From: an uncultured Christensenellaceae bacterium
GTDB lineage: Bacteria; Bacillota; Clostridia; Christensenellales; UBA3700
Length of the DNA stretch: 64,000 nt
NCBI GenBank assembly: GCA_963931165.1
Contig: OZ006985.1
Location: forward strand, 655,900-719,899
Reading direction: 5' to 3'
Shown: piece by piece, positions 5,084-21,975 of the stretch
Numbering within the stretch: position 1 is the stretch's first letter
Layout: each line of letters opens with the position of its first letter
The notes under the pieces: generated by a model
What the model was told of the DNA's origin: nothing
The model's database searches: none
What the model saw: the letters and a program-made list of their open reading frames with translations, nothing else
Translations under genes and position numbers: made by a program

Positions 5084-5137
5084 ACGTTTTTGCAAATTTT
5101 CAAAATCGGCAAAGCGCGCCTTTTGCGCGCAAGAAGA

Positions 5138-5166
5138 TTGAAGTGCGCCCGCCGATATGCTATAAT
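5138..5166 (+). promoter_or_regulatory. Sigma-A-type promoter giving a leaderless rlmD-like mRNA
   Basis: TTGAAG (5138-5143), a 17-bp spacer, then TGcTATAAT (-10 at 5161-5166). The ATG at 5173 lies 6 nt after the -10 and there is no SD. Confidence 0.55.
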
Positions 5167-5172
5167 GTAGGC

Positions 5173-6622: not shown

Positions 6623-7519
6623 TCATCGGTTTCCGCCGTCCCCATCGGGCGGCGGCTTCAATGTGTACGATCTTACGATCATAAAGAGCCCTATGCCCGA
6701 GATCAGCAAAGCCACTGCTGCGCCCGTTATATTGTTTGCAAACGCGTTTTGCGCACTCCCGAACGCCTGAATCATCGCGACCTGCAACACGAACACGGAA
6801 TACAGCGCGTCGGCGAGGTTGAAGTTGCGAAGCGCCTGTACGACAAGTCCGCCGCGCTTTTTTGCTTTTGAAAATTGTACGGCGGCGGCAATGATCTTGT
6901 AGAACGTATATGCCGCCGCGGCATAGATCATCATCCCCGCATATTCAAAGTGCATATTCGTTTTGTTCATCAAAATGACGATCGCCGACAGCGTTACGGC
7001 GAGCAGAAAGAGCAGACAGCCGCAAACGCGATAGACTTTCCGCGTTTTCTCGAAGTTGTTTTTTGCGCGTTTGCCGCCCAAAAACGCGATCACCTTCAGC
7101 GCGATCAACACAAAGTAGAAGGCGGCGATCGCGATGTTCCATATCGAGCGTGCAACGATGCCGACGATCGTCTGCAACAGCGCGTATCCTATATTGACGA
7201 CAGATCCTACCGTTGCAAAGACGACGGTGCGAAAGCCGTAATCGTTGAGCAGATTGTCGGTGAAGCGATGTCGGTGCATCGCTCGAACAGTCGAGTTTTT
7301 GATCTTTGGGGCAAGATATACGATCGTGTAAACAAAGTAGGCAAGACCGGCGGCGGCAAGTGCATAGCACACATAGCACAATATCGTCTGTGTGGGCGCT
7401 AAAATTGCAAATGCGATCGCCGCTGTCAAAGTGCATGCAAAAAGAATATAGAAGACAAACAGGGACCATCCGCGCGGATGTTTGAGAATGTCGAGCAATT
7501 TTGAAAACAGTTTTTTCAT
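6623..7519 (-). CDS. Hypothetical polytopic membrane protein
   Basis: 298-aa ORF with at least 6 hydrophobic helices. It is the downstream gene of a two-gene minus-strand operon. Confidence 0.7.
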   Translation of the reverse strand: MKKLFSKLLDILKHPRGWSLFVFYILFACTLTAAIAFAILAPTQTILCYVCYALAAAGLAYFVYTIVYLAPKIKNSTVRAMHRHRFTDNLLNDYGFRTVVFATVGSVVNIGYALLQTIVGIVARSIWNIAIAAFYFVLIALKVIAFLGGKRAKNNFEKTRKVYRVCGCLLFLLAVTLSAIVILMNKTNMHFEYAGMMIYAAAAYTFYKIIAAAVQFSKAKKRGGLVVQALRNFNLADALYSVFVLQVAMIQAFGSAQNAFANNITGAAVALLISGIGLFMIVRSYTLKPPPDGDGGNR

Positions 7520-7553
7520 GCGGAAGGTCCCTCGTTTGCGGTTGCGGCGAAGT

Positions 7554-8087
7554 TCAGATCAACTCCGCGTTCAAAAGGTCGTTGCCCTTTTCAAGAATAT
7601 TGGCAAGTTTTTCCTCAGTCTCGTCAATGACGGGGAGCAGACTTTTCGTCTTTTTGACGACGAGCTTTTTGAAAACAGGATAATTTACGGCGCACATCGC
7701 TATGCCGACCAGCCCGATGACAACGCCCGCCGCCATCGCCGCGGCGCTCTCGGGCAGCATGCAAAGACACATCCCTCCGCCGAGAACCAAAGCGGCGATA
7801 CATCCGAAAATATAGGCAAACACGCGCGCTCCTTGCGTCTTTGCCTTCTCCAAACCGTTGACGGCTTCAAAGGCGTTTTCGGCTTGCCTCTCCAATTTGA
7901 CGAGTTCGGCTTTGTGGTTGATCTTGCGGTCTCTTTTCATCGAGATCGTCACGTTGTCGAGCACGGTGCGCTCGGTCGCCGTGATCTCCCAGCCGAACGC
8001 TTCATACAGGTCTATCGCCTTGGATTGGTCTTTTGCTTTGACCGACACGGTCTTGTATTCGTAGGATACGAAATCTTTTTCTTGCAT
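7554..8087 (-). CDS. Hypothetical protein with a soluble N-terminal domain and C-terminal TM helices
   Basis: Start chosen at MQEKDFVSYEYKTV because of its SD (gaGGTGaaaaaATG). TM helices are VFAYIFGCIAALVLGGGMCLCML and AAGVVIGLVGIAMCAV. It is divergent from a TetR gene. Confidence 0.7.
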   Translation of the reverse strand: MQEKDFVSYEYKTVSVKAKDQSKAIDLYEAFGWEITATERTVLDNVTISMKRDRKINHKAELVKLERQAENAFEAVNGLEKAKTQGARVFAYIFGCIAALVLGGGMCLCMLPESAAAMAAGVVIGLVGIAMCAVNYPVFKKLVVKKTKSLLPVIDETEEKLANILEKGNDLLNAELI

Positions 8088-8138
8088 TTTTTCACCTCGT
8101 TTTATATTTTGTCTCGAGAGTGCCGACGCGCGTTTCGG

Positions 8139-8167
8139 TTGACTTCTTTGTGAGACAAGTGTATCAT
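8139..8167 (+). promoter_or_regulatory. Sigma-A-type promoter of the first TetR gene
   Basis: TTGACT-N17-TATCAT. The spacer contains TTGTgagACAA. Confidence 0.45.
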
Positions 8168-8266
8168 AAGACGAGGAGGGACAAGAAATCAACCGCCTCA
8201 AAAGGCGATAAGACAAAACGGCGCTTTCTGTCGCCGCAAACGAAACAAAAAAAGGAGTTTTGTCTC

Positions 8267-8797
8267 ATGGAATATTCGCCCGACGAGTACACAAGACACT
8301 ACATCGTGACCGCGCTTTTCAAGCTCATGCACGAGTACGAGTACGAAAAGATCAAGGTTACGGACATCGTCGCCAAGGCAGGCGTCGGCAGGGCTACATT
8401 TTACCGCTACTTCAAGAGCAAGGAAGACGTCATCATATATTACTTCGAGCGGCACACGCGCGAATTTGTGTTCGAACAGCGCATTATCCCGCGGGGAAAA
8501 GAGGATCATATCAAGATCGCTTTCGACACTTTGACGATGTTCAAGCAAAATAAAGAGCCTTTCAAATTGTTGCAGAAGGCTCATTTGACCGACCTTTACC
8601 TGGGCTATCTCAACAAAAAATTTGTGCAAAATTTTGAGCGCGACAACAGCGATAAAAACCGCTATCTTCCCTATCTCTATGCCGGGATGCTGTACAACGT
8701 GTCGATGAAATGGCTCGAGGATGACTGCAAAGAGGACGCCCAAACGCTTGCAGCAATGATCGTGGAAGCGATCTATGACAAAGGAGACAAAGAATGA
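8267..8797 (+). CDS. TetR/AcrR-family transcriptional regulator
   Basis: SD is AAGGAG. N-terminal HTH is IKVTDIVAKAGVGRATFYRYFKSKEDV. Size is ~176 aa. Confidence 0.85.
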   Translation: MEYSPDEYTRHYIVTALFKLMHEYEYEKIKVTDIVAKAGVGRATFYRYFKSKEDVIIYYFERHTREFVFEQRIIPRGKEDHIKIAFDTLTMFKQNKEPFKLLQKAHLTDLYLGYLNKKFVQNFERDNSDKNRYLPYLYAGMLYNVSMKWLEDDCKEDAQTLAAMIVEAIYDKGDKE

Positions 8798-9065
8798 TCA
8801 AGTGCGAAGAGACGATCGCCGAATTGGTGCGAGCTTGGGAAGTTCCGTCCGGGCGACGCACCTCTTTTTGTCCGAAAGCGAGATCGACCGCATAAAGGGC
8901 TATGTGCCGCAGGCGTTGAGGCAGGTGCGGCATTTGCTTGTCGACAGCGCGGGCAAAGTCAACGGAAATTTCGGGATCCGTACGAAAAACGTGTGCAAAA
9001 ATCACGTTTTCGACACGAATGCGAGTCAAAAGGTTGTAAAAGGCGCCAAATCGCGGCGACGTTGA
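8794..9065 (+). pseudogene. Possible frameshifted gene remnant
   Basis: ATG at 8794 overlaps the TetR stop (ATGA) and reads MIKCEETIAELVRAWEVPSG... for 32 codons. A plausible continuation (LFLSESEIDRIKGYVPQALRQVRHLLVDSAGKVNG...) lies in another frame after the T5 run near 8865. No family was recognised. Confidence 0.25.
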
Positions 9066-9127
9066 AAAGGCAGGCAGAGACGGATCGAAAAAATATTTTT
9101 ATTTGATGTGCAAGCAGCGGAAAATCG

Positions 9128-9166
9128 TTGACAGAATAGAATAACAGTGTTACAATAACATTGTTA
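9128..9166 (+). promoter_or_regulatory. Sigma-A-type promoter of the second TetR gene, with two tandem TAACA-N-TGTTA palindromes
   Basis: TTGACA (9128-9133)-N17-TACAAT (9151-9156). The palindromes are ATAACAgTGTTA (9141-9152) and ATAACAtTGTTA (9155-9166), overlapping the spacer, the -10 and +1. Confidence 0.55.
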
Positions 9167-9190
9167 TCAAAAAACAAGACGAGACAAAGC

Positions 9191-9808
9191 ATGAAAGTAA
9201 AGGACGAAAGTATCAACTCAAAACTGTTGGAGTGCGCCAAAGCGGAGTTTATGGAAAAAGGCTTTGCCGACGCTTCCATGCGCACGATCGCGGAACGCGC
9301 GGGCGTCACGACGGGGATGCTTTACAGCCGCTTTGCAGACAAGAGCGAAATCTTCCGCGAACTGGTGGATGGGCCGGCAGACGAGCTGTACAATTATTTC
9401 ATGACCGTACAAAACGAGTTTGCAGGGTATTCCCCCGAATACCAGCGCAGGGAAATGCACCCTTATGTCGCGCAGAAGATAGACCGTATGGTCGATCTCA
9501 TCTACGATAATTTCGATGCTTTTAAGCTCATCATCTGTAAAAGTGGGGGAACGAGCTATGAATACTACGTCGATAAAATGATAGACGTGGAGACGGAGAG
9601 CACCTTCCGCTTTATCGATGCGGTTAAAGGCGCGGGTTTTCAGATTGCCGACATCCGCAAAGATTTGGCGCACATGCTGGCGAGCGCAATGTTCAACGGC
9701 ATGTTCGAGGTCGTCATGCACGACTTATCGCGGGAGGACGCGCGGCAATATATCCTGAAATTGCAGGAATTTTTCAACGCGGGCTGGGATAAACTGCTCG
9801 GTCTGTAA
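9191..9808 (+). CDS. TetR/AcrR-family transcriptional regulator
   Basis: HTH is FADASMRTIAERAGVTTGMLYSRFADKSEIF. It lies directly upstream of the ABC exporter pair. Confidence 0.85.
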   Translation: MKVKDESINSKLLECAKAEFMEKGFADASMRTIAERAGVTTGMLYSRFADKSEIFRELVDGPADELYNYFMTVQNEFAGYSPEYQRREMHPYVAQKIDRMVDLIYDNFDAFKLIICKSGGTSYEYYVDKMIDVETESTFRFIDAVKGAGFQIADIRKDLAHMLASAMFNGMFEVVMHDLSREDARQYILKLQEFFNAGWDKLLGL

Positions 9809-9847
9809 AGAGAAGGGGAGGGAAACTCCCCTTAACGTATGCACAAT

Positions 9848-9865
9848 AGTTCGCATAAGCGAACT
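9848..9865. promoter_or_regulatory. Palindromic operator candidate AGTTCGC-ATAA-GCGAACT
   Basis: Perfect 7-bp arms, 18 nt upstream of the ABC exporter start. The same motif occurs twice at 13506-13556. Confidence 0.5.
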
Positions 9866-9882
9866 AAAATATAGGAGGACTT

Positions 9883-11643
9883 ATGGCTAAAACAGAGAAG
9901 CGTAGGGGTACGTTCTCGTACCTGTACGAATGGGCGCGACCGTATCGCCGCCGGTATGTTTTGTCGGTGCTGTTTGCGGTGCTCGAAGTCGGATTCGGAA
10001 TTGTTCCGTTCGTTTGCCTCGGCAAAATCACTGAACTGCTCGTCGCGGGCGAGTTTGCGTTCACGTTCGGAACTTACGGTATGTGGCTGCTGATCGCCGC
10101 GCTGTGCTGGGTGGGGCATTACGCCTGCCACATGGTTTCAACGACCATTTCGCACAAGGCGACGTTCACTGTCATCTCCGACGTGCGCACGAACGCCTGC
10201 GACAAACTCGCGCGCATGTCGCTCGGCGATGTCCTTTCGCGGCCGAGCGGCGAGATCAAGAACACCATTTTAGAGCGCATCGACAGCATCGAAACAACGC
10301 TCGCGCACATCGTTCCCGAAGTGTCGTCCAAACTGCTTGCGCCGATCGCGCTATTCGTTTACATAATGACCATCGACTGGCGGGTGGGGCTGATCTCGCT
10401 CATCACGATACCCGTGGGACTTTTGATGTATATGTGCATGATGATAGGCTATCAAAAGAAGTTCGGGCGGTATGTGCGCGCGGGCAAGAACCTCAACTCT
10501 GTCGCCGTGGAATATATCAACGGCATCGAGGTCATCAAGACGTTCAATCAGTCCGCCGATTCGTATAAGAAGTTCACCGACGCCGCGCATGAGTCCGCGC
10601 ACTCCGCTATCGACTGGATGAAACAGAGCCAGGTTTTCTTTTCCATTGCAATGGCGGTGTTCCCCGCCGTGCTTCTGACGGTATTGCCCGCATCTGTCGC
10701 GTTTTACGTTCAGGGCAGCGTCACTCTCGCCGAGTTCGTCATGCTCGTTGTTCTGAGTTTCGGTATGCTCACGCCGCTCATCGGCATAATGAGTTACAGC
10801 GATGACATCGGCAAGATAAGCGTCATCGTCGGGGAGATAAATTCCATTCTGCAAAAGCCGGAGCTTGTCCGCCCCAAAGATAAGGTAAAACTTACAGACT
10901 ATACCGTAAAGGGCGAAAATGTCCGTTTCGGCTACGTCGAGGGGAAAGAGATCCTGCACGGCGTAAATTTTGAATTCCGGCAGGGGACGGTGAACGCGCT
11001 CGTCGGGCCTTCGGGCAGCGGAAAATCGACGATTGCAAAGCTCATCGCCTCCATGTGGGATGTTGGAAGCGGAAAAATAACCATAGGCGGCAAGGACATC
11101 CGTGAAATTCCGCTCGAACAACTCAACCAAAACATCGCCTATGTCGCGCAAGATAACTTCCTGTTCAACGAGAGCGTGCGCGAAAACATCCGCAAGGGTA
11201 ACCTTGCCGCCACCGACGAGGAGGTGGAGAATATCGCCAAAGCGTCCGGCTGCCACGAATTTATCATGAAACTCGAAAACGGCTACGACACCGTGGTCGG
11301 CAGTTCGGGCGGGCACCTTTCGGGCGGCGAAAGACAGCGCATTGCCATTGCGCGCGCCATGCTCAAAAACGCGCCCGTCGTCATTTTAGACGAGGCGACT
11401 GCCTATACCGATCCAGAAAACGAGGCGGTCATTCAGAGTGCCGTGTCAAAACTCGTGCAGGGCAAAACGCTCATCGTCGTCGCGCACAGGCTCTCGACCA
11501 TCGTCGATTCGGATAAAATATTCCTTGTCAACGGCGGTAAAATCGAGGCGAGCGGCACGCACGAAGAGCTGCTCAAATCATCCGCGCTCTATAACGAGCT
11601 GTGGCAGGCGCATATCGGCGCAAAGGACAGAGCGGAGGATTAA
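9883..11643 (+). CDS. ABC transporter permease/ATPase fusion (exporter type), subunit 1 of a heterodimer
   Basis: Six-TM N-terminal domain plus an NBD with Walker A (GPSGSGKST), signature (LSGGERQR) and Walker B (VVILDEAT). Confidence 0.9.
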   Translation: MAKTEKRRGTFSYLYEWARPYRRRYVLSVLFAVLEVGFGIVPFVCLGKITELLVAGEFAFTFGTYGMWLLIAALCWVGHYACHMVSTTISHKATFTVISDVRTNACDKLARMSLGDVLSRPSGEIKNTILERIDSIETTLAHIVPEVSSKLLAPIALFVYIMTIDWRVGLISLITIPVGLLMYMCMMIGYQKKFGRYVRAGKNLNSVAVEYINGIEVIKTFNQSADSYKKFTDAAHESAHSAIDWMKQSQVFFSIAMAVFPAVLLTVLPASVAFYVQGSVTLAEFVMLVVLSFGMLTPLIGIMSYSDDIGKISVIVGEINSILQKPELVRPKDKVKLTDYTVKGENVRFGYVEGKEILHGVNFEFRQGTVNALVGPSGSGKSTIAKLIASMWDVGSGKITIGGKDIREIPLEQLNQNIAYVAQDNFLFNESVRENIRKGNLAATDEEVENIAKASGCHEFIMKLENGYDTVVGSSGGHLSGGERQRIAIARAMLKNAPVVILDEATAYTDPENEAVIQSAVSKLVQGKTLIVVAHRLSTIVDSDKIFLVNGGKIEASGTHEELLKSSALYNELWQAHIGAKDRAED

Positions 11644-11646
11644 ACT

Positions 11647-13398
11647 ATGTTCAAATATCTGTTGAAGTTTATAAAATTTGCAGGGAAACAGCGTAAACAC
11701 ATGATTGTGGCGCTTGTGTTCGGGTTGTTGCAGTCGGTATTTACCGCGTTTTCACTCCTTGCAACGGCGTATGCCCTGCAAAATATGATAGAGGGAACAG
11801 CGACCATGTCCACGGTCTGGTCGGCGTTCGGCATTGTGGGCGGGGGCGTGCTGCTCGCCGCCGTATGCAATTATTTCTCTACGCAGTTTCTGACGTATGC
11901 GGGCTATACCATAGCGGCGAACGCGCGTATCCGCATCGCCGACAAGCTCAAATACGCGCCGATGGGGTATTTCAACGAACATAACCTCGGTCAAATCGCC
12001 AACACCGCGACCAACACGGCGGAGTCATTGCAGGATACACTCACGCGCTGCCTGCTTTTGACGACGAAGGGATTGTTTATGGCGCTCGTCATAACCATTT
12101 CGTTGCTTGTTTTTGACTGGCGTATAGGGCTTGTCGCCGCGGCGGGATTTGTTCTCTTTCTCATTATCAATCATTTCCTGCACAAAGCGGGAGAAAAGAA
12201 CTCGGACAGAAAGACTGTTTCGGGCGATAAAGCGGTGGAGGCCGTGCTCGAATATGTGCAGGGCATTGCAGTCATCAAATCGTATAACCTGACGGGCAAG
12301 GCAAATAAAAAGGTAACTTCCGCCATCAAAGAGGACAGGGATGTCAATTACGCACTCGAAAAGAACTATATCCCGTTCATGGCATTGCAGGGCGTTGCCG
12401 TCAAACTTGCCGGTGTGGCGATCATCGCGGTGTCGGTATGGCTCTACACGCAGCTTTCAATGCCTCTGTTTACGGCGCTCGTCGCCTGTATCGCATCCTT
12501 CATGGTGTTTAACGACCTCGATTCGGGCGGCAATATGTCCGCGCTGCTGCGCATAGCGGCGAACAGCATCGACAAGATCGAGGCGGCGATGAATTTGCCC
12601 GTCATGGATATAAACGGCAAGGAGATAACGCCTGTCAAGGCAGATATTGCCGTGCAGAATGTGGATTTTTCCTACGACAAGCGCAAGATCATCGACGGCG
12701 TTACAGTGGATATACCCGCGCGCTCCTCGCTCGCCATCGTCGGCGGTTCGGGCAGTGGAAAAACGACGCTGTGCAACCTTATCCTGCGGTTCTGGGACGT
12801 GGATAAGGGAAGCATATCCCTCGGCGGACACGATGTGCGCGAATATAAACTGGATAGCCTCTTAAAAAATTACAGTATGGTGTTCCAGAACGTGTACCTG
12901 TTCAACGATACGATTGCAAACAATATCCGTTTCGGAAAGCCGGACGCGAGTATGGAGGAAGTGATAGAGGCGGCGAAAAAGGCGTGTTGTCACGACTTCA
13001 TCTCCGCGCTCCCCGACGGGTACGATACGGTCATCGGCGAGGGCGGCGCGAGCATTTCGGGCGGCGAAAAACAGCGCATTTCCATTGCCCGCGCAATCAT
13101 TAAAGACAGCCCCGTCATCATTCTGGACGAGGCGACGGCGAACGTCGATCCCGAAAACGAATGGATGCTGCAAAACGCCATCCGGGAACTGACGAAGTCC
13201 AAAACGGTCATCATGATCGCGCACCGGTTAAAGACAGTGCGCCATGCCGATAAGATCATCGTGCTCGACGGCGGCAAGATTGTCGAAGAGGGTACGCACA
13301 AAGAACTTTTGGCAAAGCAGGGCAAGTATGCCGAATTTATCGCCATGCGCGAAAAGTCCGTGGGCTGGAAACTCGGCAGTGCAATGCAAAACAGATAG
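11647..13398 (+). CDS. ABC transporter permease/ATPase fusion (exporter type), subunit 2
   Basis: Walker A (GGSGSGKTT), signature (ISGGEKQR) and Walker B (VIILDEAT). It starts 3 nt after the previous gene. Confidence 0.9.
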   Translation: MFKYLLKFIKFAGKQRKHMIVALVFGLLQSVFTAFSLLATAYALQNMIEGTATMSTVWSAFGIVGGGVLLAAVCNYFSTQFLTYAGYTIAANARIRIADKLKYAPMGYFNEHNLGQIANTATNTAESLQDTLTRCLLLTTKGLFMALVITISLLVFDWRIGLVAAAGFVLFLIINHFLHKAGEKNSDRKTVSGDKAVEAVLEYVQGIAVIKSYNLTGKANKKVTSAIKEDRDVNYALEKNYIPFMALQGVAVKLAGVAIIAVSVWLYTQLSMPLFTALVACIASFMVFNDLDSGGNMSALLRIAANSIDKIEAAMNLPVMDINGKEITPVKADIAVQNVDFSYDKRKIIDGVTVDIPARSSLAIVGGSGSGKTTLCNLILRFWDVDKGSISLGGHDVREYKLDSLLKNYSMVFQNVYLFNDTIANNIRFGKPDASMEEVIEAAKKACCHDFISALPDGYDTVIGEGGASISGGEKQRISIARAIIKDSPVIILDEATANVDPENEWMLQNAIRELTKSKTVIMIAHRLKTVRHADKIIVLDGGKIVEEGTHKELLAKQGKYAEFIAMREKSVGWKLGSAMQNR

Positions 13399-15374: not shown

Positions 15375-15983
15375 ATGTTAAAAAAGTTCTTAAAAAATTG
15401 CAAAAAACCGGAAGGTAAATTCGGTAAATGGGTAGTGAGTGCAATGAACAAAGGTCATGCGCCTCTCGCGCTTTGGGCGTTTGAAGTTTGTCCGCTTTCG
15501 GACGGGGAAAGCGTCCTGGACGTCGGGTGCGGCGGCGGAGGCAATCTTGTCCGCATTCTGGAGCGCTGCCCGAAAAGCCGCGCCGACGGAATTGACTATT
15601 CGGAGGAAAGCGTTGCATGCAGCCGTAAAGCGACCAAAAAATATGCGGACAGGTGCAGTATCTTGTGCGGAGATGCCATGCATCTGCCGTATCGGGATGA
15701 TGCATTCGACAGGGCGGTGTCCTTTGAATCCATATATTTCTGGCCGGATCCGGTACGCGGACTGAAAGAGATTTGCCGCGTATTGAAACAAGGCGGCAAA
15801 GTCATGATTGCCTCTGAAATGACCGATCCCGAAAAGGGAAAATTCTGGGCAAAACGCTGTGAAGGCATGACGATCTATACGGCGGAGCAGCTCGCTGCCC
15901 TTATGGGGAAAGCAGGGTTTTCCGATATAAAAATCCATAAGACGCGCAAAGTGTGGTGTGCCGTCGAGGGGATAAAGCCCTGA
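15375..15983 (+). CDS. Class I SAM-dependent methyltransferase
   Basis: Motif I is VLDVGCGGGGNL. ATG 15375 was chosen over GTG 15363 on SD spacing. Confidence 0.75.
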   Translation: MLKKFLKNCKKPEGKFGKWVVSAMNKGHAPLALWAFEVCPLSDGESVLDVGCGGGGNLVRILERCPKSRADGIDYSEESVACSRKATKKYADRCSILCGDAMHLPYRDDAFDRAVSFESIYFWPDPVRGLKEICRVLKQGGKVMIASEMTDPEKGKFWAKRCEGMTIYTAEQLAALMGKAGFSDIKIHKTRKVWCAVEGIKP

Positions 15984-16014
15984 TGCGGCAAAGATATGGA
16001 CGGAAGCATAGAAA

Positions 16015-16497
16015 ATGATTTTAGCAATCGAAACGACGGCTTTATGTATTGTCTTTTTTCTGTTATGTTTTTTGGGAACGGGGACTGACGAGAAGAACTT
16101 GAAAAATTATTCGTCATATCCGGATGAGGTTCAAAATCTGATAAACGAAATTGCAGAATATCGTGGGCGCTATAAAGAACACAGTAAAGCGGCGGTATTT
16201 TTGTTGAATTTTTTGTTGTTCTTGTTTTTATTTTTCATTTTGGGACTGTTTATCAGAGACAGCAGCTTTTTGCAAAATTTTGTTTCCCTGACCATTATGG
16301 GGCAAAGTCTGAACGTATTTGATTTTCTGGTCATTGACCTTTTATGGTGGCGGAATACAAAACGCATTCGTTTTACAAAAATACCCGAAAAAGAATTGTA
16401 TCGGAATCCGAAAAAACATATATGGTCGTTTATCAGGGGAGTTGTGATGTATCTGATAATCGCTTTAGTAGACGGATATATATTGACGTTATTTTAG
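16015..16497 (+). CDS. Hypothetical membrane protein in a markedly AT-rich segment
   Basis: Four hydrophobic helices. Local GC is clearly lower than the flanking DNA by eye. Confidence 0.65.
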   Translation: MILAIETTALCIVFFLLCFLGTGTDEKNLKNYSSYPDEVQNLINEIAEYRGRYKEHSKAAVFLLNFLLFLFLFFILGLFIRDSSFLQNFVSLTIMGQSLNVFDFLVIDLLWWRNTKRIRFTKIPEKELYRNPKKHIWSFIRGVVMYLIIALVDGYILTLF

Positions 16498-16533
16498 TCG
16501 GAAATATGGTATGTACGGTAATGGAGGATACGA

Positions 16534-17325
16534 ATGAAACCGGATTATAAGAATTGGGTGCCGAGAGGGTTGTTGTTTCTCCTCGGCGGCATGGCGATTA
16601 TCTGCCTTGCCTTATGTATCGTGTTCGGCATGGCGGGCGTGGCGACGGAGGGCGGGCTGCGCATCGCGCTCGGCGTACTCTTTGGCGCGGCGTTTTTGCT
16701 GTTTGCCGTCCTGACGGGCATATTTGCAAATATGTATTGCGCCTTTTCGTATCACGGCAAAAAGCAGGTTTCAAAACGGGTGATCGAAGGCATTGTGCAA
16801 TACGTTGCGTTGCCGGACGGAGGAAAGGGGTTGGATGTCGGCTGCGGCAGCGGGGCGCTTACCATCGCCTGCGCAAAGCGCAATCCGCACGCGCAGATGG
16901 TCGGCATAGACCGCTGGGGCAAAGAATACGCCTCGTTCAATCTTCCGCTCTGCGAACGCAATGCAGAGGCGGAAGGGGTGCGAAACGTATCATTTTTGCG
17001 CGGGAACGCCGTAAAACTCGACTTTCCGGACAAAACGTTCGACGCCGTGACGAGCAACTATGTCTATCACAACATCAAGGGCAAGGATAAGCAGCAGCTT
17101 CTTTCGGAAACGCTGCGCGTGCTGAAAAAGGGCGGCACATTCGCCATTCACGACATCATGTCGCCGCGCGAATACGGCGATATGCGGGCGTTTGTGAAAA
17201 AGCTGAAAGAGTGCGGTTATGAAAAGGTCGAGCTTGTCGATACGACGGACGGATCGTTACTGACAAAGAAAGAGAGCAGGGCATATATGCTCGCTCATTC
17301 CAAACTGTTGGTCGGGAAAAAGTAA
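16534..17325 (+). CDS. Membrane-anchored class I SAM-dependent methyltransferase
   Basis: Two N-terminal TM helices followed by motif I (GLDVGCGSGALT) and DAVTSNYVYHN. Confidence 0.75.
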   Translation: MKPDYKNWVPRGLLFLLGGMAIICLALCIVFGMAGVATEGGLRIALGVLFGAAFLLFAVLTGIFANMYCAFSYHGKKQVSKRVIEGIVQYVALPDGGKGLDVGCGSGALTIACAKRNPHAQMVGIDRWGKEYASFNLPLCERNAEAEGVRNVSFLRGNAVKLDFPDKTFDAVTSNYVYHNIKGKDKQQLLSETLRVLKKGGTFAIHDIMSPREYGDMRAFVKKLKECGYEKVELVDTTDGSLLTKKESRAYMLAHSKLLVGKK

Positions 17326-17346
17326 CGGCACGAAAGGAGGGCAGAT

Positions 17347-18138
17347 TTGACGACGACTGCAATGACCGTACTCGGTTTTTGTATCATTTTCATAGCGACG
17401 ACTGCGGGCGCGGCGTTTGTATTTTTCTTCAAGGGAGAGATGTCCGGCAAACTCAATACTCTGTTTTTGGGGTTTGCTTCGGGTGTGATGGTGGCGGCGT
17501 CCGTCTGGTCGCTGCTCATTCCGTCCATTGATGGCGCGGAAGAAACATACGGAGCATTGAGTTTTCTGCCTGCCGTCACAGGTTTTCTTCTCGGCGGAGC
17601 GTTTCTCGTGCTTATTGACAAGCTCGTACCGCACCTTCATAAGGGAACAAACGAGGAAGAGGGCTTAAAAAGCCACTTAAATAAGCCCGCTAAACTCTTT
17701 CTTGCCGTCACTATACATAACATTCCCGAAGGACTTGCCGTAGGTTTTGCGTTCGGCGCGGCGGCAGCGCTCGGAGAGGAAGGCGCGTTTGTTTCCGCGC
17801 TCGGTCTTGCCGTGGGCATGGCGATACAGAATTTTCCGGAAGGCGCGGCGGTGTCTTTGCCCCTGAAAACGGCGACGGGCAGCCGCGGCAAGGCCTTTTT
17901 ATACGGCATGGGCAGCGGAGCGGTGGAACCTGTATTTGCCGTCGTCGGGTATTTTCTTGCAGCAAATCTCACGGCGGCACAGCCGTGGTTTTTGGCGTTC
18001 GCTGCGGGCGCAATGATATTTGTCGTCATAGAAGATCTCATCCCCGACGCGCACCTTTCCGAACACCCGCATTTCGGCACATGGGGCGCAATGCTCGGCT
18101 TTGTCGTGATGATGGCGCTGGACGTCGCTTTAGGATAA
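17347..18138 (+). CDS. ZIP-family divalent metal transporter (ZupT-like)
   Basis: TTG start 6 nt after GGAGGG. ZIP signatures are HNIPEGLAVGFAFG and QNFPEGAAVS. Confidence 0.85.
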   Translation: MTTTAMTVLGFCIIFIATTAGAAFVFFFKGEMSGKLNTLFLGFASGVMVAASVWSLLIPSIDGAEETYGALSFLPAVTGFLLGGAFLVLIDKLVPHLHKGTNEEEGLKSHLNKPAKLFLAVTIHNIPEGLAVGFAFGAAAALGEEGAFVSALGLAVGMAIQNFPEGAAVSLPLKTATGSRGKAFLYGMGSGAVEPVFAVVGYFLAANLTAAQPWFLAFAAGAMIFVVIEDLIPDAHLSEHPHFGTWGAMLGFVVMMALDVALG

Positions 18139-18246
18139 AAGATTATTTCCGTTAGCGTATGTTAATGCTTCGCGTTTTCTCTTGACATTTGCCGGAAGTA
18201 ATAATATAATAAAATTACTAAATGATATAAGGAGAGGCTCGCATAG
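18007..18246 (+). repeat. Direct repeat copy 1: ZIP gene 3' end, stop, intergenic promoter region and up to the position of the dtxR start
   Basis: It aligns with 18786-19024. There are 6 mostly synonymous differences in the first ~50 nt, then 111 nt of perfect identity (18055-18165), then progressive divergence through the promoter. The ATG equivalent reads ATA. Confidence 0.85.
18182..18210 (+). promoter_or_regulatory. Consensus sigma-A promoter inside repeat copy 1, now facing the AT-rich insert
   Basis: TTGACA-N17-TATAAT. Confidence 0.5.
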
Positions 18247-18377
18247 GTTTGATCTCTTCTTTAGTGATAAATCTATATTATACAACAAAATAGACAAAAA
18301 GAAAATATAGAAAGGCTGCCGCAACCATCACTTTATTCCTATTTGTGCTGATGCTTTGTGGCAGAATAGTGATTGAT

Positions 18378-18623
18378 ATGAAAACATATTCATTATTAGA
18401 TGTATATAAATTAAATCGTAAGATTTTAGGTGTAATGATGCCTATCGCTGCTACAGTATTTTTATTGTTGGCGATAATTATTCTTATTGCTATGCCTACA
18501 ATATGGTGGGGAAGCCTAATATTGTTCGGAATTGCGCTTGGACTTATACTGTTATGTATCTTTATTCGCAAATACATAGATAAAAAAATCAAAGAGTTGG
18601 AAGAAAAAGAGCGCAACAACTAA
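18378..18623 (+). CDS. Small two-TM membrane protein in the AT-rich insert (start uncertain)
   Basis: MKTYSLLDVYKLNRKILGVMMPIAATVFLLLAIIILIAMPTIWWGSLILFGIALGLILLCIF followed by a KKIKELEEKERNN tail. SD is weak. Confidence 0.45.
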   Translation: MKTYSLLDVYKLNRKILGVMMPIAATVFLLLAIIILIAMPTIWWGSLILFGIALGLILLCIFIRKYIDKKIKELEEKERNN

Positions 18624-18669
18624 ATATTTTTTAACTTATTTACAATATTTATAATGGGGGAATAATTTC

Positions 18670-18786
18670 ATGAATAAGATCTTGGCGGGCAGAAAAAGAA
18701 CTTGCTTTACCGTTTTATTGCTTATAGGTTTAGTGCTTGTAGCGATAAGCATTATTTTATCGAAAAGAAATGTCGCATTCGCGTAG
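18670..18786 (+). CDS. 38-aa hydrophobic peptide (MNKILAGRKRTCFTVLLLIGLVLVAISIILSKRNVAFA)
   Basis: Below the ORF-track cutoff. SD is GGGGGA, 9 nt upstream. The stop codon sits exactly at the junction with repeat copy 2. The last residues (AFA) match the ZIP sequence LAFAAG. Confidence 0.4.
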   Translation: MNKILAGRKRTCFTVLLLIGLVLVAISIILSKRNVAFA

Positions 18787-18917
18787 GCGCAATGATATTC
18801 GTCGTCGTGGAAGATCTGATCCCCGACGCACATCTTTCCGAACACCCGCATTTCGGCACATGGGGCGCAATGCTCGGCTTTGTCGTGATGATGGCGCTGG
18901 ACGTCGCTTTAGGATAA
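18786..18917 (+). pseudogene. Detached 3' fragment (last 43 codons) of a ZIP transporter gene
   Basis: It encodes GAMIFVVVEDLIPDAHLSEHPHFGTWGAMLGFVVMMALDVALG, which is identical to the C-terminus of the intact gene except for I->V. There is no upstream ZIP coding sequence. Confidence 0.8.
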
Positions 18918-18960
18918 AAGATTATTTCCGTTAGCGTATGTTAACGTCCCGCGTTTTCTC

Positions 18961-18989
18961 TTTACTTTTGCCGTAGAAAATAGTATAAT
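18961..18989 (+). promoter_or_regulatory. Sigma-A-type promoter of the DtxR-family gene (in repeat copy 2)
   Basis: TTTACT-N17-TATAAT. Confidence 0.5.
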
Positions 18990-19021
18990 AAATATCGAAA
19001 ATGATATGATGAGGTGCGCAT

Positions 19022-19396
19022 ATGGCTGTCAACAGGACGAGAGAGTCGGAAGAAATGTATTTGGAGACCATTCTTTTGCTGCATAAAGGACAGCCGAACG
19101 TGCGCGCCGTGGACGTCAAAGACGAACTCGGTCTTGCCAAATCGAGCGTTTCGCGCGGCGTCAATCTCCTTGAAAAGAAAGGGTTTATCCATATCGACCG
19201 CGAAACGGGAAATCTGAGTTTCACCGACGCAGGCAGAAAAAAGGCAGAGGGCATATACGAGCGGCATCAGACGCTTACTAAGGCGCTTATGAAGCTCGGA
19301 GCAAACCTCGAACTTGCCGAAGAAAACGCCTGCCGCATGGAGCACGTCGTCTCCGACGAGATGATGAGAGTGTTCCGAAATTATATCAAAGAGTAA
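19022..19396 (+). CDS. DtxR/MntR-family metal-dependent transcriptional regulator (short form)
   Basis: SD is GAGGTG. Motifs are EEMYLETILLLHKG and the wHTH LGLAKSSVSRGVNLLEKKGFI. Size is 124 aa. Confidence 0.85.
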   Translation: MAVNRTRESEEMYLETILLLHKGQPNVRAVDVKDELGLAKSSVSRGVNLLEKKGFIHIDRETGNLSFTDAGRKKAEGIYERHQTLTKALMKLGANLELAEENACRMEHVVSDEMMRVFRNYIKE

Positions 19397-19403
19397 GGGA
19401 AAA

Positions 19404-19428
19404 GGAACGCCGCGCGCGTTCCTTTTTT
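19404..19428 (+). terminator. Rho-independent terminator
   Basis: GGAACGC-CGCGC-GCGTTCC hairpin followed by TTTTTT. Confidence 0.8.
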
Positions 19429-19606
19429 GTGTAGACATTTTTTGGGAAAATTTAATTGACTCGGCAAACAAATTCGACTTGCGGGCGGCAATGATAATGC
19501 CGTACATCGGTTCGCAGGATGAAATTTGAAATGCGTATTTATACACAATTTGCAAGTTGGTAACCGCGTACAAAGAAATGTCCGAAAATTCGCGCCGTTT
19601 CGCGTT

Positions 19607-19634
19607 GCATATCCCGCCAAAGAGCGCATATATT
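19607..19634 (+). promoter_or_regulatory. Candidate mother-cell (sigma-E-like) promoter of the SipL-like gene
   Basis: GCATATC-N13-CATATATT. The remembered consensus is kmATATT-N13/14-CATACAmT. Confidence 0.3.
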
Positions 19635-19662
19635 TGAGGTAGAAAACTTGCGAGGGTGGACT

Positions 19663-21144
19663 ATGCAAACCAAACAAATCCAATTCGACCGCATCCGAAA
19701 ACTCGGGGCGGGACAATTCGTAGTGGAGTGCAATGTGAGCGCGGACAGCGAGATCAAGTCGCTGCTGTGCGTGAGCGCGGACGTCGGCGACATACGCGCC
19801 GCGATCACCGCCGGACAGATCGCGGTGTCGGGCAAGATCGGCGTCAACGTGATATACGAGACGGAAGAGGGCGTCGATTCGGCGGATCACGTCACCGACT
19901 TTTCAAAGCTGCTGTCCGACGAGGGTGTGGGCGACGGCGCAAAGGCGCTTGTCGACGCGACGATCGCGGACACTGAGACTGAGTTGCGTGGCAACTCGGT
20001 CGCGGTGAGGATAGTCGTGCAATTGTCGCCGACGGCGGTCGAGACGCAAAGCCTCGACGTGTTCGACGGCGAGGACGGAACGTGCGAAAAGAGGCGCACG
20101 CTTTCGCTCATCGAGACCGTCGCTGACATAGACGCAGAGGTCGAGACAGAGGAAAAATATTCGGTCGGCAGCGGCGTGGAAAAGGTGCTCGGCTTTACGA
20201 CTGCCGCCGTGATCTGCAAACAGACCGCTACCGAGACGGGGCTGTCGATAGACGGCGAGATCTGCGCCGACGTCATCTATCTTTCGGACGGAGAGATGTG
20301 CCGCAAGACCTTCTCGATGCCCTTTGCAAAGTCGATCGACGCGCCGGAGAACTGCTGCGCTTTGGCGGTCGTCTCGATGAAGGAGAGCGCGCTCAACGTG
20401 GGCGGCAAGGCGGACGACGCAACGCTCACGCTCACCGCGAAGGCGACGGTGTCGGGCTTTGTGTTGAGGCAGTTTGACGAAGAGGTGATCTGCGATGTCT
20501 ACTCGCCGTGTCACAAACTCGAATTTTCGTGCCCGTGTCTGTCTTTCGACGAAATTGTCGACACGGGTGCATACCGCGAACGCATCTCGGGCAGCGTGTC
20601 CGTAGCCGACGGAGAGGCGGACGCGGCGCGCGTCGTATGTGCTCGGGTCGCCGAGTGCGACCTGACTTCGGTCACGACGAAGGACGGCTGCATCGTCACC
20701 GAAGGTGTCGTGACCGCCTGCGTCGTATACGAGACGGAGGACGGCGGCAAGTCGTCGGTCAAGGTGGAGCTGCCCTATGCGCTCGACCACGAAGCGCGAG
20801 ACGTCAAAGAGGGCGACTTTGCGTTCGTGAGCGCGGGATGCTGCGACCTGTTCGCCAAGGTCAAGCGCGGGCGCGAGATCGAAGTCGGGGCGACGCTGGC
20901 GTTTTCTGCGCTTGCGACGCGCACTTGTCGCGCGACGGTCGTCACCGAGGCGACGGTCGGCGAAAAGCTCGAAGACGACGGAGAGGCGATTGTCGTTGTG
21001 TCGGCGAAAAAGGGCGAGACGGCGTGGGATCTTGCCAAGCGGCTCTGCGTGAGGGCGGAAGAGGTCGAAAGTTTCAATCCGTCCGTGGAGTTCCCCGCCG
21101 AGGGCGGCGAAAAGATCGTGGTTTACAGAATGCTCGCGATGTGA
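19663..21144 (+). CDS. DUF3794/SPOCS-domain protein with a C-terminal LysM-like domain (SipL-like spore-coat morphogenetic protein)
   Basis: SD is GAGGGTGG. The protein is acidic with repeated beta-rich segments. The C-terminus (KKGETAWDLAKRLCVRAEEVESFNP...GEKIVVYR) resembles LysM. It sits upstream of ispE, as is common in Clostridia. Confidence 0.65.
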   Translation: MQTKQIQFDRIRKLGAGQFVVECNVSADSEIKSLLCVSADVGDIRAAITAGQIAVSGKIGVNVIYETEEGVDSADHVTDFSKLLSDEGVGDGAKALVDATIADTETELRGNSVAVRIVVQLSPTAVETQSLDVFDGEDGTCEKRRTLSLIETVADIDAEVETEEKYSVGSGVEKVLGFTTAAVICKQTATETGLSIDGEICADVIYLSDGEMCRKTFSMPFAKSIDAPENCCALAVVSMKESALNVGGKADDATLTLTAKATVSGFVLRQFDEEVICDVYSPCHKLEFSCPCLSFDEIVDTGAYRERISGSVSVADGEADAARVVCARVAECDLTSVTTKDGCIVTEGVVTACVVYETEDGGKSSVKVELPYALDHEARDVKEGDFAFVSAGCCDLFAKVKRGREIEVGATLAFSALATRTCRATVVTEATVGEKLEDDGEAIVVVSAKKGETAWDLAKRLCVRAEEVESFNPSVEFPAEGGEKIVVYRMLAM

Positions 21145-21150
21145 TATAAT
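21122..21150 (+). promoter_or_regulatory. Sigma-A-type promoter giving a (near-)leaderless ispE mRNA
   Basis: TTTACA-N17-TGaTATAAT. GTG at 21157 lies 6 nt after the -10 and there is no SD. Confidence 0.45.
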
Positions 21151-21156
21151 AAGGTC

Positions 21157-21975
21157 GTGGACAAGACGACCGAATTGAGAGCGTACGCCAAGCTCAATCT
21201 CGCGCTCGACATCACGGGCACGGACGGCGAGGGCTATCATCTGCTCGACATGATCAATTGTACGGTGGGCGTATTCGATACGCTCGCCGTTTCGCGCGCC
21301 GCAAAAGTCGCGGTGACGATGGACGGCAAGCCTTGCGGCGGCGAGAATACCGCCTACCGTGCCGCTTCGGCGGTCGAGAGGCTGTCGGGCGCGCCGCTTG
21401 CGGTCAACATCGTCAAGGGCATACCGTTCGGCGCGGGGCTGGGCGGCTCGTCCGCGGACGCGAGCGCGGTGCTGCGCTATGCGGCGGACGCGGGGCTGAT
21501 CTCGCTTGCCGACGCCGAAGAGGCGGCGCGCTCGATAGGCAGCGACGTCGTGTATATGATGCACGGCGGGATGGCGCGCGTGCGCGGCAGGGGAGAGCTG
21601 ATCGAGCCGTTGAGACAAAGCGAGCTTGACATCGTTATCGCCCGTCGGGACAGGGGCGGTTCGACCGCAGAGGTCTACCGCAAATATGACGAGATCGGGC
21701 GGCAAGGCGCGGGGATAGACGGCGTTTTGAGAGGGGAGACCGCACGCTACAATGTGCTCGAAGCGCCGGCGGTCGCGCTGTGTCCCGAAATAGCGCGGCT
21801 CAAAGAGAGGATGGCAGGCGCGTTCGGCGAGGCGGTGATGACGGGCAGCGGCAGCGCGGTCTGCTCGATCGTAGCAGACGCCGACAACGCGCGGCGGACG
21901 TTGGAGCGCGGCTTTTGCGACGCGAATTTTCGCGCGGTCGTAAAGACGGTGCCGCGAGCTATAGAATATCTTTGA
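21157..21975 (+). CDS. ispE: 4-diphosphocytidyl-2-C-methyl-D-erythritol kinase
   Basis: AYAKLNLALDI N-terminus and the GHMP kinase motif KGIPFGAGLGGSSADASAVL. The start is GTG 21157, with an in-frame TTG six codons later as an alternative. Confidence 0.9.
   Translation: MDKTTELRAYAKLNLALDITGTDGEGYHLLDMINCTVGVFDTLAVSRAAKVAVTMDGKPCGGENTAYRAASAVERLSGAPLAVNIVKGIPFGAGLGGSSADASAVLRYAADAGLISLADAEEAARSIGSDVVYMMHGGMARVRGRGELIEPLRQSELDIVIARRDRGGSTAEVYRKYDEIGRQGAGIDGVLRGETARYNVLEAPAVALCPEIARLKERMAGAFGEAVMTGSGSAVCSIVADADNARRTLERGFCDANFRAVVKTVPRAIEYL

Follow-up and report, generated by a model that had tools for sequence, protein, structure and literature searches.

The window, which is the whole stretch of 64,000 nucleotides that was analysed from an uncultured Christensenellaceae bacterium, carries a gene for a ZIP-family metal transporter and, after it on the same strand, a gene for a DtxR/MntR-family regulator. 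Between the two genes lies AT-rich DNA, bounded by two copies of a direct repeat. The features to which the text refers are as follows.

17347 to 18138, plus strand: intact gene for a ZIP-family metal transporter (Pfam PF02535, open reading frame list, genes called in L001 and L003)
18007 to 18246, plus strand: direct repeat, copy 1 (repeat search, alignment, comparison with empty sites and other strains)
18182 to 18210, plus strand: consensus sigma-70-type promoter, TTGACA-17-TATAAT, 12/12 (promoter scan)
18247 to 18373, plus strand: AT-rich leader of 127 nt (97% identity between the window and L030)
18374 to 18771, plus strand: homology to a mobilizable element at its left end, covering the 81-aa gene, a spacer and ~100 nt at the start of the GLUG gene (L026-L028, L015-L022)
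18378 to 18623, plus strand: intact gene for an 81-aa two-helix membrane protein (homologues, alleles, dN/dS, AlphaFold model)
between 18653 and 18654, no strand: point at which a nested tet(W) element is inserted in related strains (left junction in L013; right junction in L040, L041 and L042)
18670 to 18786, plus strand: 38-aa open reading frame, the truncated 5' end (signal peptide) of a GLUG-protein gene (comparison with L028)
18778 to 18783, plus strand: microhomology TTCGC(G), 5-6 bp, at a joint (joint compared with both the GLUG gene and the ZIP gene)
18786 to 19024, plus strand: direct repeat, copy 2 (repeat search, alignment, strain comparison, promoter scan)
19022 to 19396, plus strand: intact gene for a DtxR/MntR-family regulator with its native promoter region (Pfam PF01325 and PF02742)

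The identities proposed for the two flanking genes were confirmed by Pfam. The ZIP protein has 263 aa when read from a TTG start (gene callers start at 17362, giving 258 aa) and matches PF02535 above threshold (E=3.6e-20, 72.9 bits), and the regulator is over threshold for both PF01325 (34.3 bits) and PF02742 (47.6 bits). The duplication spares ZIP, dtxR and the dtxR promoter, all three of which are intact, and from 18786 onward the window is 98.6% identical to strains in which the site is empty.

Recomputation reproduced the layout given in the original prediction, namely the repeats with their 111-nt core and rightward divergence, the pair of promoters, the ATA, the dip in GC and both reading frames. 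GC is 29-33% across 18100-18800 and 50-60% in the flanks; the insert between the repeats, ~540 bp long, has roughly 30% GC in a genome region of ~55%. The repeat search paired 18007-18234 with 18786-19013 at 89% identity over 228 nt, and a MAFFT alignment carries the homology on to the dtxR start codon (18007-18246 versus 18786-19024). The copies are identical over the 111 nt of the core, 18055-18165. Six substitutions separate them to the left of it, counted by Nei-Gojobori path averaging as 4.5 synonymous and 1.5 non-synonymous with the ATA/GTG codon included, and to the right they diverge increasingly through the promoter until the dtxR ATG of copy 2 is matched by ATA in copy 1. Copy 1 is made up of the resident ZIP 3' end (18007-18054), the core and an intergenic region here called E-type (18166-18246), which is a diverged copy of the ZIP-dtxR intergenic region and ends in the ATA. 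Copy 2 starts with a ZIP 3' fragment of a foreign allele (E-left, 18786-~18835), after which come the shared core and the native intergenic region, which contains the promoter of dtxR; the reading frame of the ZIP remnant within it runs from 18792 to 18917 (41 codons). The consensus promoter of copy 1 faces into the insert, and its -35 box is TTTACA in some relatives, while that of copy 2 (18961-18989) reads TTTACT-17-TATAAT and agrees with the consensus at 10/12 positions. No confident palindrome was found in the duplicated promoter when it was searched for a DtxR operator.

The ZIP-dtxR site is polymorphic across related strains, in which it is empty or holds either the 540-bp version or a version with an element. 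An empty site is present in L002, L006, L009 and L010, which lack the insert and encode an identical DtxR protein; with the same protein the site is occupied in L001, L003-5 and L007-8. The site is also empty in strains whose ZIP allele is far more diverged, at 80% nt identity. Repeats of this size confuse short-read assemblers, and the apparent tandem in L011 may be an example, but the duplication is almost certainly not an assembly artefact from a collapsed or chimaeric repeat: other samples, assembled independently, show the arrangement with 100% identity over 3.6 kb (on contigs that include ones of 138 kb, 122 kb and 1.8 Mb), and the two copies differ at fixed positions which recur across samples. 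The exact 41-aa product of the ZIP remnant is indexed in 93 blocks of a public collection.

The genes of the insert have close relatives in a mobile element. The segment 18374-18771 is 86-88% identical to L026-L028, and 18374-18639 is 91% identical to L015-L022; the MAGs that bear the element are labelled Ruminococcaceae, Catabacter, Clostridiales and 'Mollicutes', with 86-91% identity to the insert genes. Elsewhere the genes of the element are ordered as 81-aa protein, GLUG protein (1247 aa, with a signal peptide), 198-aa protein, NikA-like protein, relaxase, large serine recombinase. Across more than 20 contigs the 81-aa-type gene always comes after a serine recombinase and ahead of the GLUG, NikA-like, relaxase and 542-aa serine recombinase genes. 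The window keeps the left ~400 bp of this, corresponding to the 81-aa gene and the first ~34 GLUG codons. Since neither the open reading frame list nor Pfam gave a recombinase or relaxase inside 18247-18785, the window holds a fragment of a serine-recombinase integrative mobilizable element (IME) and is not an IME member. The earlier statement that no integrase is present is therefore correct locally, but it does not extend to the parent element with its large serine recombinase and relaxase.

Larger versions of the element occur at the same site. In L030-L035, ZIP is followed by the E-type intergenic region, then by the leader of 127 nt, the 81-aa gene and the GLUG gene in full, and the element DNA of these contigs is 99.5-99.8% identical to L028; the element there is complete at least through the 198-aa gene, the recovered contigs ending inside it and before the right-hand junction. 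The spacer and GLUG 5' part of the window are 79.7% identical to the L028-type element (dS 0.49); the remnant is not a recent derivative of it. The complete copies found at the ZIP site may instead be later arrivals that recombined with the remnant. The leader sits between the E-type intergenic region and element DNA in every ZIP-site version, those with the complete element included, and no convincing match to it was found outside these versions. A diverged dtxR 5' end and an IS terminus were both considered for the leader and dropped, as it has only short AT-rich similarity to L024 and L029. Homology to the element begins ~4 nt before the ATG at the ZIP site, 29 nt before it in L024 and L029 and 52 nt before it in L014, and the right limits likewise vary among insertion sites. 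As the boundaries vary between settings, no fixed att site is evident. A blastn search of the insert against phage and plasmid collections found nothing.

The 38-aa reading frame is explained by the GLUG gene. In L028 this gene (8300-12043) begins MNKILANKKRTCFIVLLLTVLVFVAICITLQERNTVFAASADV, and the frame in the window reads MNKILAGRKRTCFTVLLLIGLVLVAISIILSKRNVAFA up to its stop; it aligns with the GLUG gene over the initial ~34 codons, and the stop is created at the joint. On this comparison it is a pseudogene fragment and no peptide gene of its own, and its product has no above-threshold match in Pfam, PHROGs, NCBIfam or PADLOC. The GLUG gene is truncated in other ways in L024 and L029. Where the GLUG 5' end meets the ZIP 3' fragment, the microhomology is common to ZIP (..GCGTTCGCTGCG..) and to the GLUG gene (..GTTTTCGCGGCA.., encoding ..VFA|A..), and the joint is read as an illegitimate one formed at this microhomology. 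The terminal AFA of the 38-aa frame, which had been derived from ZIP, is consequently not assignable to ZIP alone, because the microhomology is shared with the GLUG gene.

The insert is regarded as foreign because it is AT-rich, is absent from the site in related strains and matches a mobile element of several gut Clostridia lineages. We consider it probable that it is a polymorphic insertion scar, consisting of the stranded left end of a gut-Clostridia mobilizable element together with a duplicated piece of ZIP. One illegitimate recombination event would have made the 779-bp unit of ZIP 3' end, intergenic region, leader, 81-aa gene and GLUG 5' end, either by microhomology-mediated tandem duplication in an element-bearing strain, or by a deletion within an element with ZIP copies already on both sides. 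As the duplication takes in the ZIP 3' end and the entire intergenic region, the stop codon of ZIP and the promoter of dtxR are both preserved, and the scar would therefore be near neutral for the two genes and could persist. The locus thus provides a worked natural example of how duplication of a gene's 3' end and the adjacent promoter lets foreign DNA settle harmlessly between genes. It counts against this reading that contigs which end within the element do not fix the order of events (deletion, tandem duplication, circle integration).

The polarity could also be reversed, with the repeat-flanked arrangement as the old state and the empty sites as secondary deletions by recombination between the repeats. 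A crossover in the 111-nt core would give exactly the empty-site sequence of L002 and L006, so that empty sites could in principle come from such a deletion between the identical cores, and both states are found among strains with an identical DtxR protein. This is nevertheless decidedly improbable given the contrast in GC between the insert (~30%) and its region (~55%), the 86-91% identity of its genes to a mobile element in differently labelled MAGs, and the empty sites of strains whose ZIP allele is 80% identical at the nucleotide level. Single deletions could still take place, but the insert as such is an acquisition.

The repeats are reciprocal hybrids, copy 1 having a resident left and a donor-type right part and copy 2 a donor-type left and a resident right part, and the empty sites, which read as the left part of copy 1, the core and the right part of copy 2, have resident sequence on either side. 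The ZIP fragment of copy 2 differs from L002, the nearest empty-site allele, by four synonymous and no non-synonymous changes, and its descent from a different, once-functional ZIP allele is supported. A metagenome scan found no full-length ZIP allele with the foreign E-left signature, and the broader E-left pattern and the exact 41-aa remnant product gave matches only in contigs with the joint of GLUG 5' to ZIP 3'. The switch between alleles falls at ~18148-18166 in copy 1 and at ~18831-18866 in copy 2, which in repeat coordinates is ~142-160 versus ~45-81, and between these points both copies are resident-type. Because the switch points are unequal, one clean single crossover is insufficient and an added conversion tract is needed. 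The proposed origin from another strain is therefore borne out by the foreign ZIP allele and the hybrid repeats, but a single Campbell-type crossover does not suffice to produce them.

Integration by such a crossover, at an empty site, of a ~779-bp circle that bore AT-rich cargo together with the 3' end of a foreign ZIP gene and a homologue of the intergenic region is a possible but doubtful origin. It agrees with the reciprocal hybrids and with the synonymous changes alone in the foreign ZIP piece, and the permuted order in L011 (insert, ZIP 3', E-type intergenic region, insert) is what would be expected from a circle or a tandem array. L011 is however a 1.5-kb short-read contig, and may be a chimaeric path through the repeat. 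The ~100 nt between the switch points of the two copies would require the extra conversion tract, the circle would first need the same illegitimate TTCGC joint in order to form, and a unit of 779 bp is without a replicon, recombinase or transfer function. With the left-hand ZIP gene and the right-hand ZIP remnant acting as homology arms, the spread among strains is explained without a circle.

The scar favoured here is comparable to several known arrangements. Cis-mobilizable elements (CIMEs) are recombinase-less remnants flanked by direct repeats and have been described for relatives of the streptococcal ICESt1 and ICESt3. As in the decayed IMEs and CIMEs of Firmicutes, a short stretch of element without recombinase or transfer genes has been left at an integration locus; it lies between direct repeats, is found in the population together with empty sites and complete elements, and can interact with complete elements that arrive. 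Whereas CIMEs have short att cores and arise by site-specific recombination, the repeats here are ~240 bp of diverged homologous host sequence, and one boundary is a microhomology joint with no fixed att site evident. Some integrative elements, among them SXT/R391 in prfC and ICESt1/3 in fda, enter a protein-coding gene at its 3' end and bring a substitute for that end with them. The ZIP site resembles these in that the target gene is intact and a gene 3' end is displaced or duplicated on the far side; it differs in that the duplication also takes the whole intergenic region up to the neighbour's start codon, that the segment is ~10% diverged either side of an identical core, and that no recombinase-defined core was found. 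Homology-facilitated illegitimate recombination (HFIR) has been described in Acinetobacter and in Streptococcus pneumoniae transformation, and normally gives insertion or replacement without long direct duplication. The single novel joint at 5-6 bp of TTCGCG beside extensive anchoring homology is like microhomology duplication or HFIR, and so is the outcome of foreign DNA with host sequence around it; the long direct duplication is unlike HFIR, and a simple tandem duplication alone leaves the foreign-allele signature of copy 2 unexplained without later recombination. A literature search on illegitimate recombination gave nothing specific to the ZIP-dtxR case.

The 81-aa gene, in contrast to the 38-aa frame, is real and conserved, with 14 distinct alleles that are all intact, a dN/dS of 0.11-0.45 and an intact coding sequence in four separate genomic settings. 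An AlphaFold model (mean pLDDT 79.8) gives a plain helical hairpin with helices at 6-38 and 43-80, and the protein is hydrophobic with a charged C-terminal tail. The locus thereby draws attention to an uncharacterised family of ~80-aa two-helix membrane proteins (44 representatives) with an MK..SLL(D/E)xYK motif and an (I/V)WW.(G/S)L turn, whose members occur both on chromosomes and in mobile contexts. The gene is probably transcribed from the consensus promoter, which would descend from the dtxR promoter, with a weakened ribosome-binding site, as the AAGGAGG of the element copies is missing upstream of it in the window. Our best guess is that the product serves the element as a small membrane protein with an accessory or exclusion-type role.

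The original prediction had read both peptides as resembling type I toxins or other small membrane effectors under a metal-regulated promoter. It is highly improbable that the insert is a working module of this kind, with a type I toxin or holin-like effector and a partner peptide under a metal-responsive promoter. The two helices and charged tail of the 81-aa protein are like those of class II (two-TM) holins and type I toxins, a promoter of consensus type derived from that of dtxR precedes its gene, and it has a sub-threshold match to Phage_holin_3_6 (E=1.6e-4, 22.1 bits, cut-off 28.4). Such weak matches were however found in just 5 of 38 family members, and neither Pfam, PHROGs, NCBIfam nor PADLOC gave a match above threshold, the sub-threshold ones being typical of transmembrane helices. 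The putative partner is what a truncation has left of the 1247-aa GLUG protein, namely its N-terminal signal peptide, and the ribosome-binding site is degraded in the context of the window. Unlike holins, the 81-aa protein has no lysin as a neighbour, its neighbours being the GLUG surface protein or unrelated genes; distant family members lie in ordinary chromosomal settings, in which no conserved partner, lysin or antitoxin-like gene was seen. Unlike holins and type I toxins alike, it belongs to a distinct ~80-aa family. Rfam matched no RNA family across 17300-19700 even at a permissive E<=1, and the promoter scan reported no minus-strand site in 18247-18785, although an antisense RNA of a new kind may exist. 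A scan of IMG/VR for the family found nothing. The claim of a toxin thus falls for the 38-aa frame and is without support for the 81-aa protein, which is a conserved two-helix protein outside any family matched above threshold. The main value of the analysis is corrective: what resembled a metal-controlled toxin cassette with two peptides is the remnant of a mobile element, an ordinary insertion scar rather than a new toxin module.

The distribution of the scar indicates that it is exchanged among strains, and apparently between species too, by homologous recombination in the flanking ZIP sequences. The remnant is 96-97% identical upstream of a TetR/ABC block in contigs with a dtxR homologue that is only 71% identical. 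Alleles of the 81-aa gene are mosaics of the remnant and element types, with a crossover between nt 25 and 72 in L030-32 and patchworks in L036 and L039, and these show that the scar also recombines with circulating complete elements through this gene. The locus illustrates in this way how a scar can spread through homologous recombination and exchange sequence with copies of its parent element that are in circulation.

An extended reading, which is improbable, makes the 779-bp unit an integrase-free cassette that moves between Clostridia ZIP loci by homologous recombination, serves as a landing pad for the complete element and for the tet(W) element, and is kept for a benefit of the 81-aa protein. 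The ZIP gene and its duplicated 3' end would then be portable homology arms, the complete element would be recruited through homology to the 81-aa gene, and the benefit might be exclusion of, or immunity to, the element with the GLUG protein. In close relatives the scar hosts the tet(W) resistance element, whose tet(W) identity is 98.5%.

The repeat search returned one long direct repeat, 18007-18234 against 18786-19013 (89% identity), and alignment extended its homology to the dtxR start codon, agreeing with the originally noted pair of about 240 bp. The DNA between the copies is AT-rich as claimed, at about 30% GC compared with 50-60% outside. The features are as follows.

Left flank: ZIP transporter gene (PF02535)
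18007-18246: copy 1 of the direct repeat
18182-18210: perfect promoter of copy 1, TTGACA-17-TATAAT (promoter scan)
18247-18373: leader of 127 nt
18378-18623, plus strand: 81-aa gene
18670-18786, plus strand: 38-aa ORF
18786-19024: copy 2 of the direct repeat
18961-18989: promoter of copy 2, TTTACT-17-TATAAT (promoter scan)
Right flank: gene for a 124-aa DtxR/MntR-family regulator (PF01325 and PF02742)

The core, 18055-18165, spans 111 nt without a difference between the copies. Six substitutions lie to its left, one ATA/GTG codon among them; path averaging scores 4.5 as synonymous and 1.5 as non-synonymous. To its right, divergence climbs across the promoter. The dtxR ATG of copy 2 is ATA in copy 1. 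The identical tract, the six substitutions, the better promoter of copy 1 and its ATA had all been noted and were all recovered. The neighbouring genes (SipL, SleB-like, YpeB and SpoIIE) indicate a spore-forming host within the Clostridia.

Human-gut and chicken-gut metagenomes are among the assembly sets that supplied related contigs. An exact look-up of the DtxR protein retrieved contigs from many samples. Over 15900-19500 the window is matched at 100% identity by L001 (a contig of 138 kb), L003 (1.8 Mb) and L004 (122 kb), and the insert was also present in L005, L007 and L008. In the collection, 93 blocks index the exact 41-aa product encoded by the ZIP remnant, and the same arrangement was seen in all ten places listed. 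The arrangement, for which an assembly artefact had been a stated concern, is not an artefact. The empty site sought in related genomes was found in L002, L006, L009 and L010, where dtxR comes straight after ZIP with a 104-nt gap between them. The site is polymorphic between strains.

A homologue 85% identical to the 81-aa protein (P0008) was found in more than 20 contigs, always just 3' of a serine recombinase gene and followed by genes for a GLUG-motif protein, a 198-aa protein, a NikA-like protein, a relaxase and a 542-aa serine recombinase, while the DNA farther upstream varies (phage structural genes, Hachiman genes and others). These contigs match the window at 18374-18639 with 91% nucleotide identity, and the match reaches 18771 in L026-L028, gut MAGs labelled Clostridiales, Bacillota and 'Mollicutes'. 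In L028 the 81-aa gene precedes a gene for a 1247-aa GLUG protein starting MNKILANKKRTCFIVLLLTVLVFVAICITLQERNTVFAASADV, and the product of the 38-aa ORF is MNKILAGRKRTCFTVLLLIGLVLVAISIILSKRNVAFA, ending at a stop; the ORF is the truncated signal peptide of the GLUG protein. Around the cut, the sequence is GTTTTCGCGGCA in the GLUG gene, GCGTTCGCTGCG in ZIP and GCATTCGCGTAG in the window. GLUG and ZIP meet in an illegitimate joint at the TTCGC(G) microhomology (18778-18783), and the stop codon of the ORF is generated there. The original likening of two small hydrophobic peptides to type I toxins was not upheld: for the 38-aa ORF it was rejected in favour of a GLUG 5' fragment, and the insert belongs to no type I toxin or holin family.

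Six contigs (L030-L035, one from chicken gut) carry at the ZIP site a diverged intergenic region (E-type), the leader (97% identical to that of the window) and the 81-aa gene; after these come the GLUG gene in full and the 198-aa gene, with 99.5-99.8% identity to L028. As a more complete element thus occupies the same site, the window insert is a left-end fragment of a mobilizable element; it is not itself a complete integrative mobilizable element. The GLUG fragment of the remnant is only 79.7% identical to the L028 type (dS 0.49), so the scar is old or derives from another lineage of the element, and the complete copies may be later arrivals which recombined with the remnant. The right junction of a complete element at the ZIP site was sought among the contigs and not recovered.

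An independent scar of the same element is found in L029 (7750-7971, minus strand) and L024, where an orphan 81-aa gene, with the GLUG gene cut after about 18-24 codons, adjoins the truncated N-terminus of an IS transposase. In element copies L015-L022 and L025-L028 the 81-aa gene is always preceded, at a distance of about 400 nt, by a short serine recombinase gene (329-387 aa), whose final 185 nt or so are conserved together with a 395-nt spacer. All DNA upstream of this conserved stretch differs (phage head genes, Hachiman, CTD6/MC2 or a tyrosine-integrase element), which looks as if different elements had accumulated in tandem at a single recombinase-associated site.

The 81-aa protein has close homologues only, in 15 clusters, in a set of 5.8 billion proteins, and gave no match at threshold to Pfam, NCBIfam, PHROG or PADLOC models. 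All 14 distinct nucleotide alleles are intact, with pairwise dN/dS of 0.11-0.45, lowest for the most divergent pair. The coding sequence is kept in four settings: inside the mobilizable element, at the ZIP site, beside the truncated IS transposase (L029, a Catabacter MAG, and L024, a Ruminococcaceae MAG), and between a giant Big_3 protein and a glycosyltransferase (L014). Homology breakpoints lie tightly around it: before the ATG they fall at about 4, 29 or 52 nt, and past the gene region at 1, about 54-70 or about 100 nt. A profile search of 1.84 billion representatives gave a family of 44, with members of about 80 aa that share an N-terminal MK..SLL(D/E)xYK motif, two hydrophobic helices linked by an (I/V)WW.(G/S)L turn and a KKIKELE-type charged tail; the AlphaFold model is a helical hairpin (helices 6-38 and 43-80, mean pLDDT 79.8). 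The distant members have no conserved partner gene nearby and lie in ordinary chromosomal neighbourhoods. This uncharacterised small-protein family is of modest additional interest.

Empty sites consist of the left part of copy 1 (the resident ZIP 3' end), the core, and the right part of copy 2 (the native intergenic region with ATG). In occupied sites, copy 1 joins the resident left part and core to a diverged E-type intergenic region, and copy 2 joins a foreign ZIP piece, E-left (ATATTCGTCGTCGTGGAAGATCTG...), and core to the native intergenic region. E-left has four changes from the closest empty-site allele (L002), all synonymous, and so diverged within a working ZIP gene elsewhere. Other strains carry additional E-type markers in the core-equivalent region (GGGGTGCAATG, GCCATGATG and TTGGGGTAAAGAATTATTTCAG), at which both window copies have the resident version. 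In copy 1 the change between donor and resident type comes at about 18148-18166, in copy 2 at about 18831-18866. A conversion or crossover tract is the best reading of the 111-nt identity, for which a single clean crossover does not account; the repeats did not conform to a strict single crossover. The foreign origin proposed for the second copy is favoured, for its ZIP piece, by the reciprocal hybrids and the synonymous E-left changes, but the Campbell-type crossover proposed with it is insufficient alone, as the switch points differ.

Three routes fit these repeats. In the first, a tandem duplication mediated by microhomology would have taken place in a strain bearing the element, fusing the GLUG 5' end with the ZIP 3' end upstream of it; the native intergenic region and dtxR would then have been regained by recombination with an empty-site allele. 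In the second, the element already lay between two ZIP copies and its interior was deleted, joining the GLUG 5' end to the right-hand copy. In the third, a circle of a 779-bp unit (ZIP 3' end, intergenic region, leader, 81-aa gene and GLUG 5' end) integrated by a Campbell-type crossover. The order in L011 (insert, E-left, E-type intergenic region, insert) fits the first or third, although this is a 1.5-kb short-read contig and possibly a chimaeric path. Across L011:1-1468 there are two successive units (ZIP 3' end, E-type intergenic region, insert), about 5% apart in the intergenic region and leader; the tandem is either genuine or the product of a chimaeric path in the assembly.

The reading frame of ZIP is complete and has its stop codon, dtxR retains its native promoter region and start codon, and the scar is inferred to be nearly neutral for both. 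A consensus promoter is directed into the insert, within which no terminator-like site turned up in the plus-strand scan. Element copies have a strong AAGGAGG ribosome-binding site that is absent before the window 81-aa gene, where a weak GTGAT match is all that is left. The duplicated promoter probably drives transcription of this gene, yet its translation would be weak; read-through could boost dtxR transcription, and metal control of the duplicated promoter is possible. The closest known things are CIME-like scars (recombinase-less remnants of integrative mobilizable elements), elements whose insertion leaves a second 3' end of the target gene, and duplication through microhomology or homology-facilitated illegitimate recombination; the locus is a fresh example of an already known kind of event.

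At the ZIP site the 81-aa gene occurs in mosaic alleles that mix remnant and element types (that of L030-L032 switches between nt 25 and 72, and those of L036 and L039 are patchworks), showing that remnant and circulating element swap DNA by homology. ZIP alleles beside the remnant are up to 20% apart among strains 98.6% identical on the dtxR side. In a comparison over 17376-18213, the ZIP gene has only about 80% nucleotide identity to L002, L009 and L010, compared with 98.6% for the ZIP 3' end and dtxR side. The alleles change abruptly within ZIP, which suggests that this transporter often recombines or has its allele replaced. The remnant also occurs, at 96-97% identity, in contigs where ZIP remnant, terminator and a TetR/ABC-exporter block follow one another and a dtxR homologue only 71% identical lies about 7 kb further on. 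With ZIP sequence at both ends, the cassette can enter any genome with a similar ZIP gene on a linear fragment.

The block of TetR and two ABC-exporter genes lies in the window at 9220-13391, about 5 kb upstream of ZIP; a copy of about 92% identity is directly downstream of the ZIP remnant in L037 (reverse complement 7481-11688) and L041 (reverse complement 1104-5310), and L002 and L057 carry another allele at the upstream position. An upstream block (160-aa ORF and methyltransferase) is present or absent independently of the insert, all four combinations being seen. The 160-aa gene is itself a second AT-rich single-gene indel (15988-16522, 34% GC, ORF 16015-16497), missing in L037, and its multi-pass membrane product had no family match; the larger block 15977-17375, with the methyltransferase (16534-17325), is missing in L002, L005, L009 and L010.

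The site is also of modest interest as a recombination hot spot bearing tet(W) in close relatives. In related strains a tet(W) element is inserted within the scar at window 18653|18654, between the 81-aa gene and the 38-aa ORF (junctions in L013:990-1059, L040:1-2670, L041 and L042:1-60). It carries tet(W), 98.5% identical to plasmid tet(W), a 310-aa methyltransferase and a Mob_Pre relaxase. L042, which has the insertion, is 98% identical to the window over 18654-21941, and 'ATG' is found at both junctions of the element.
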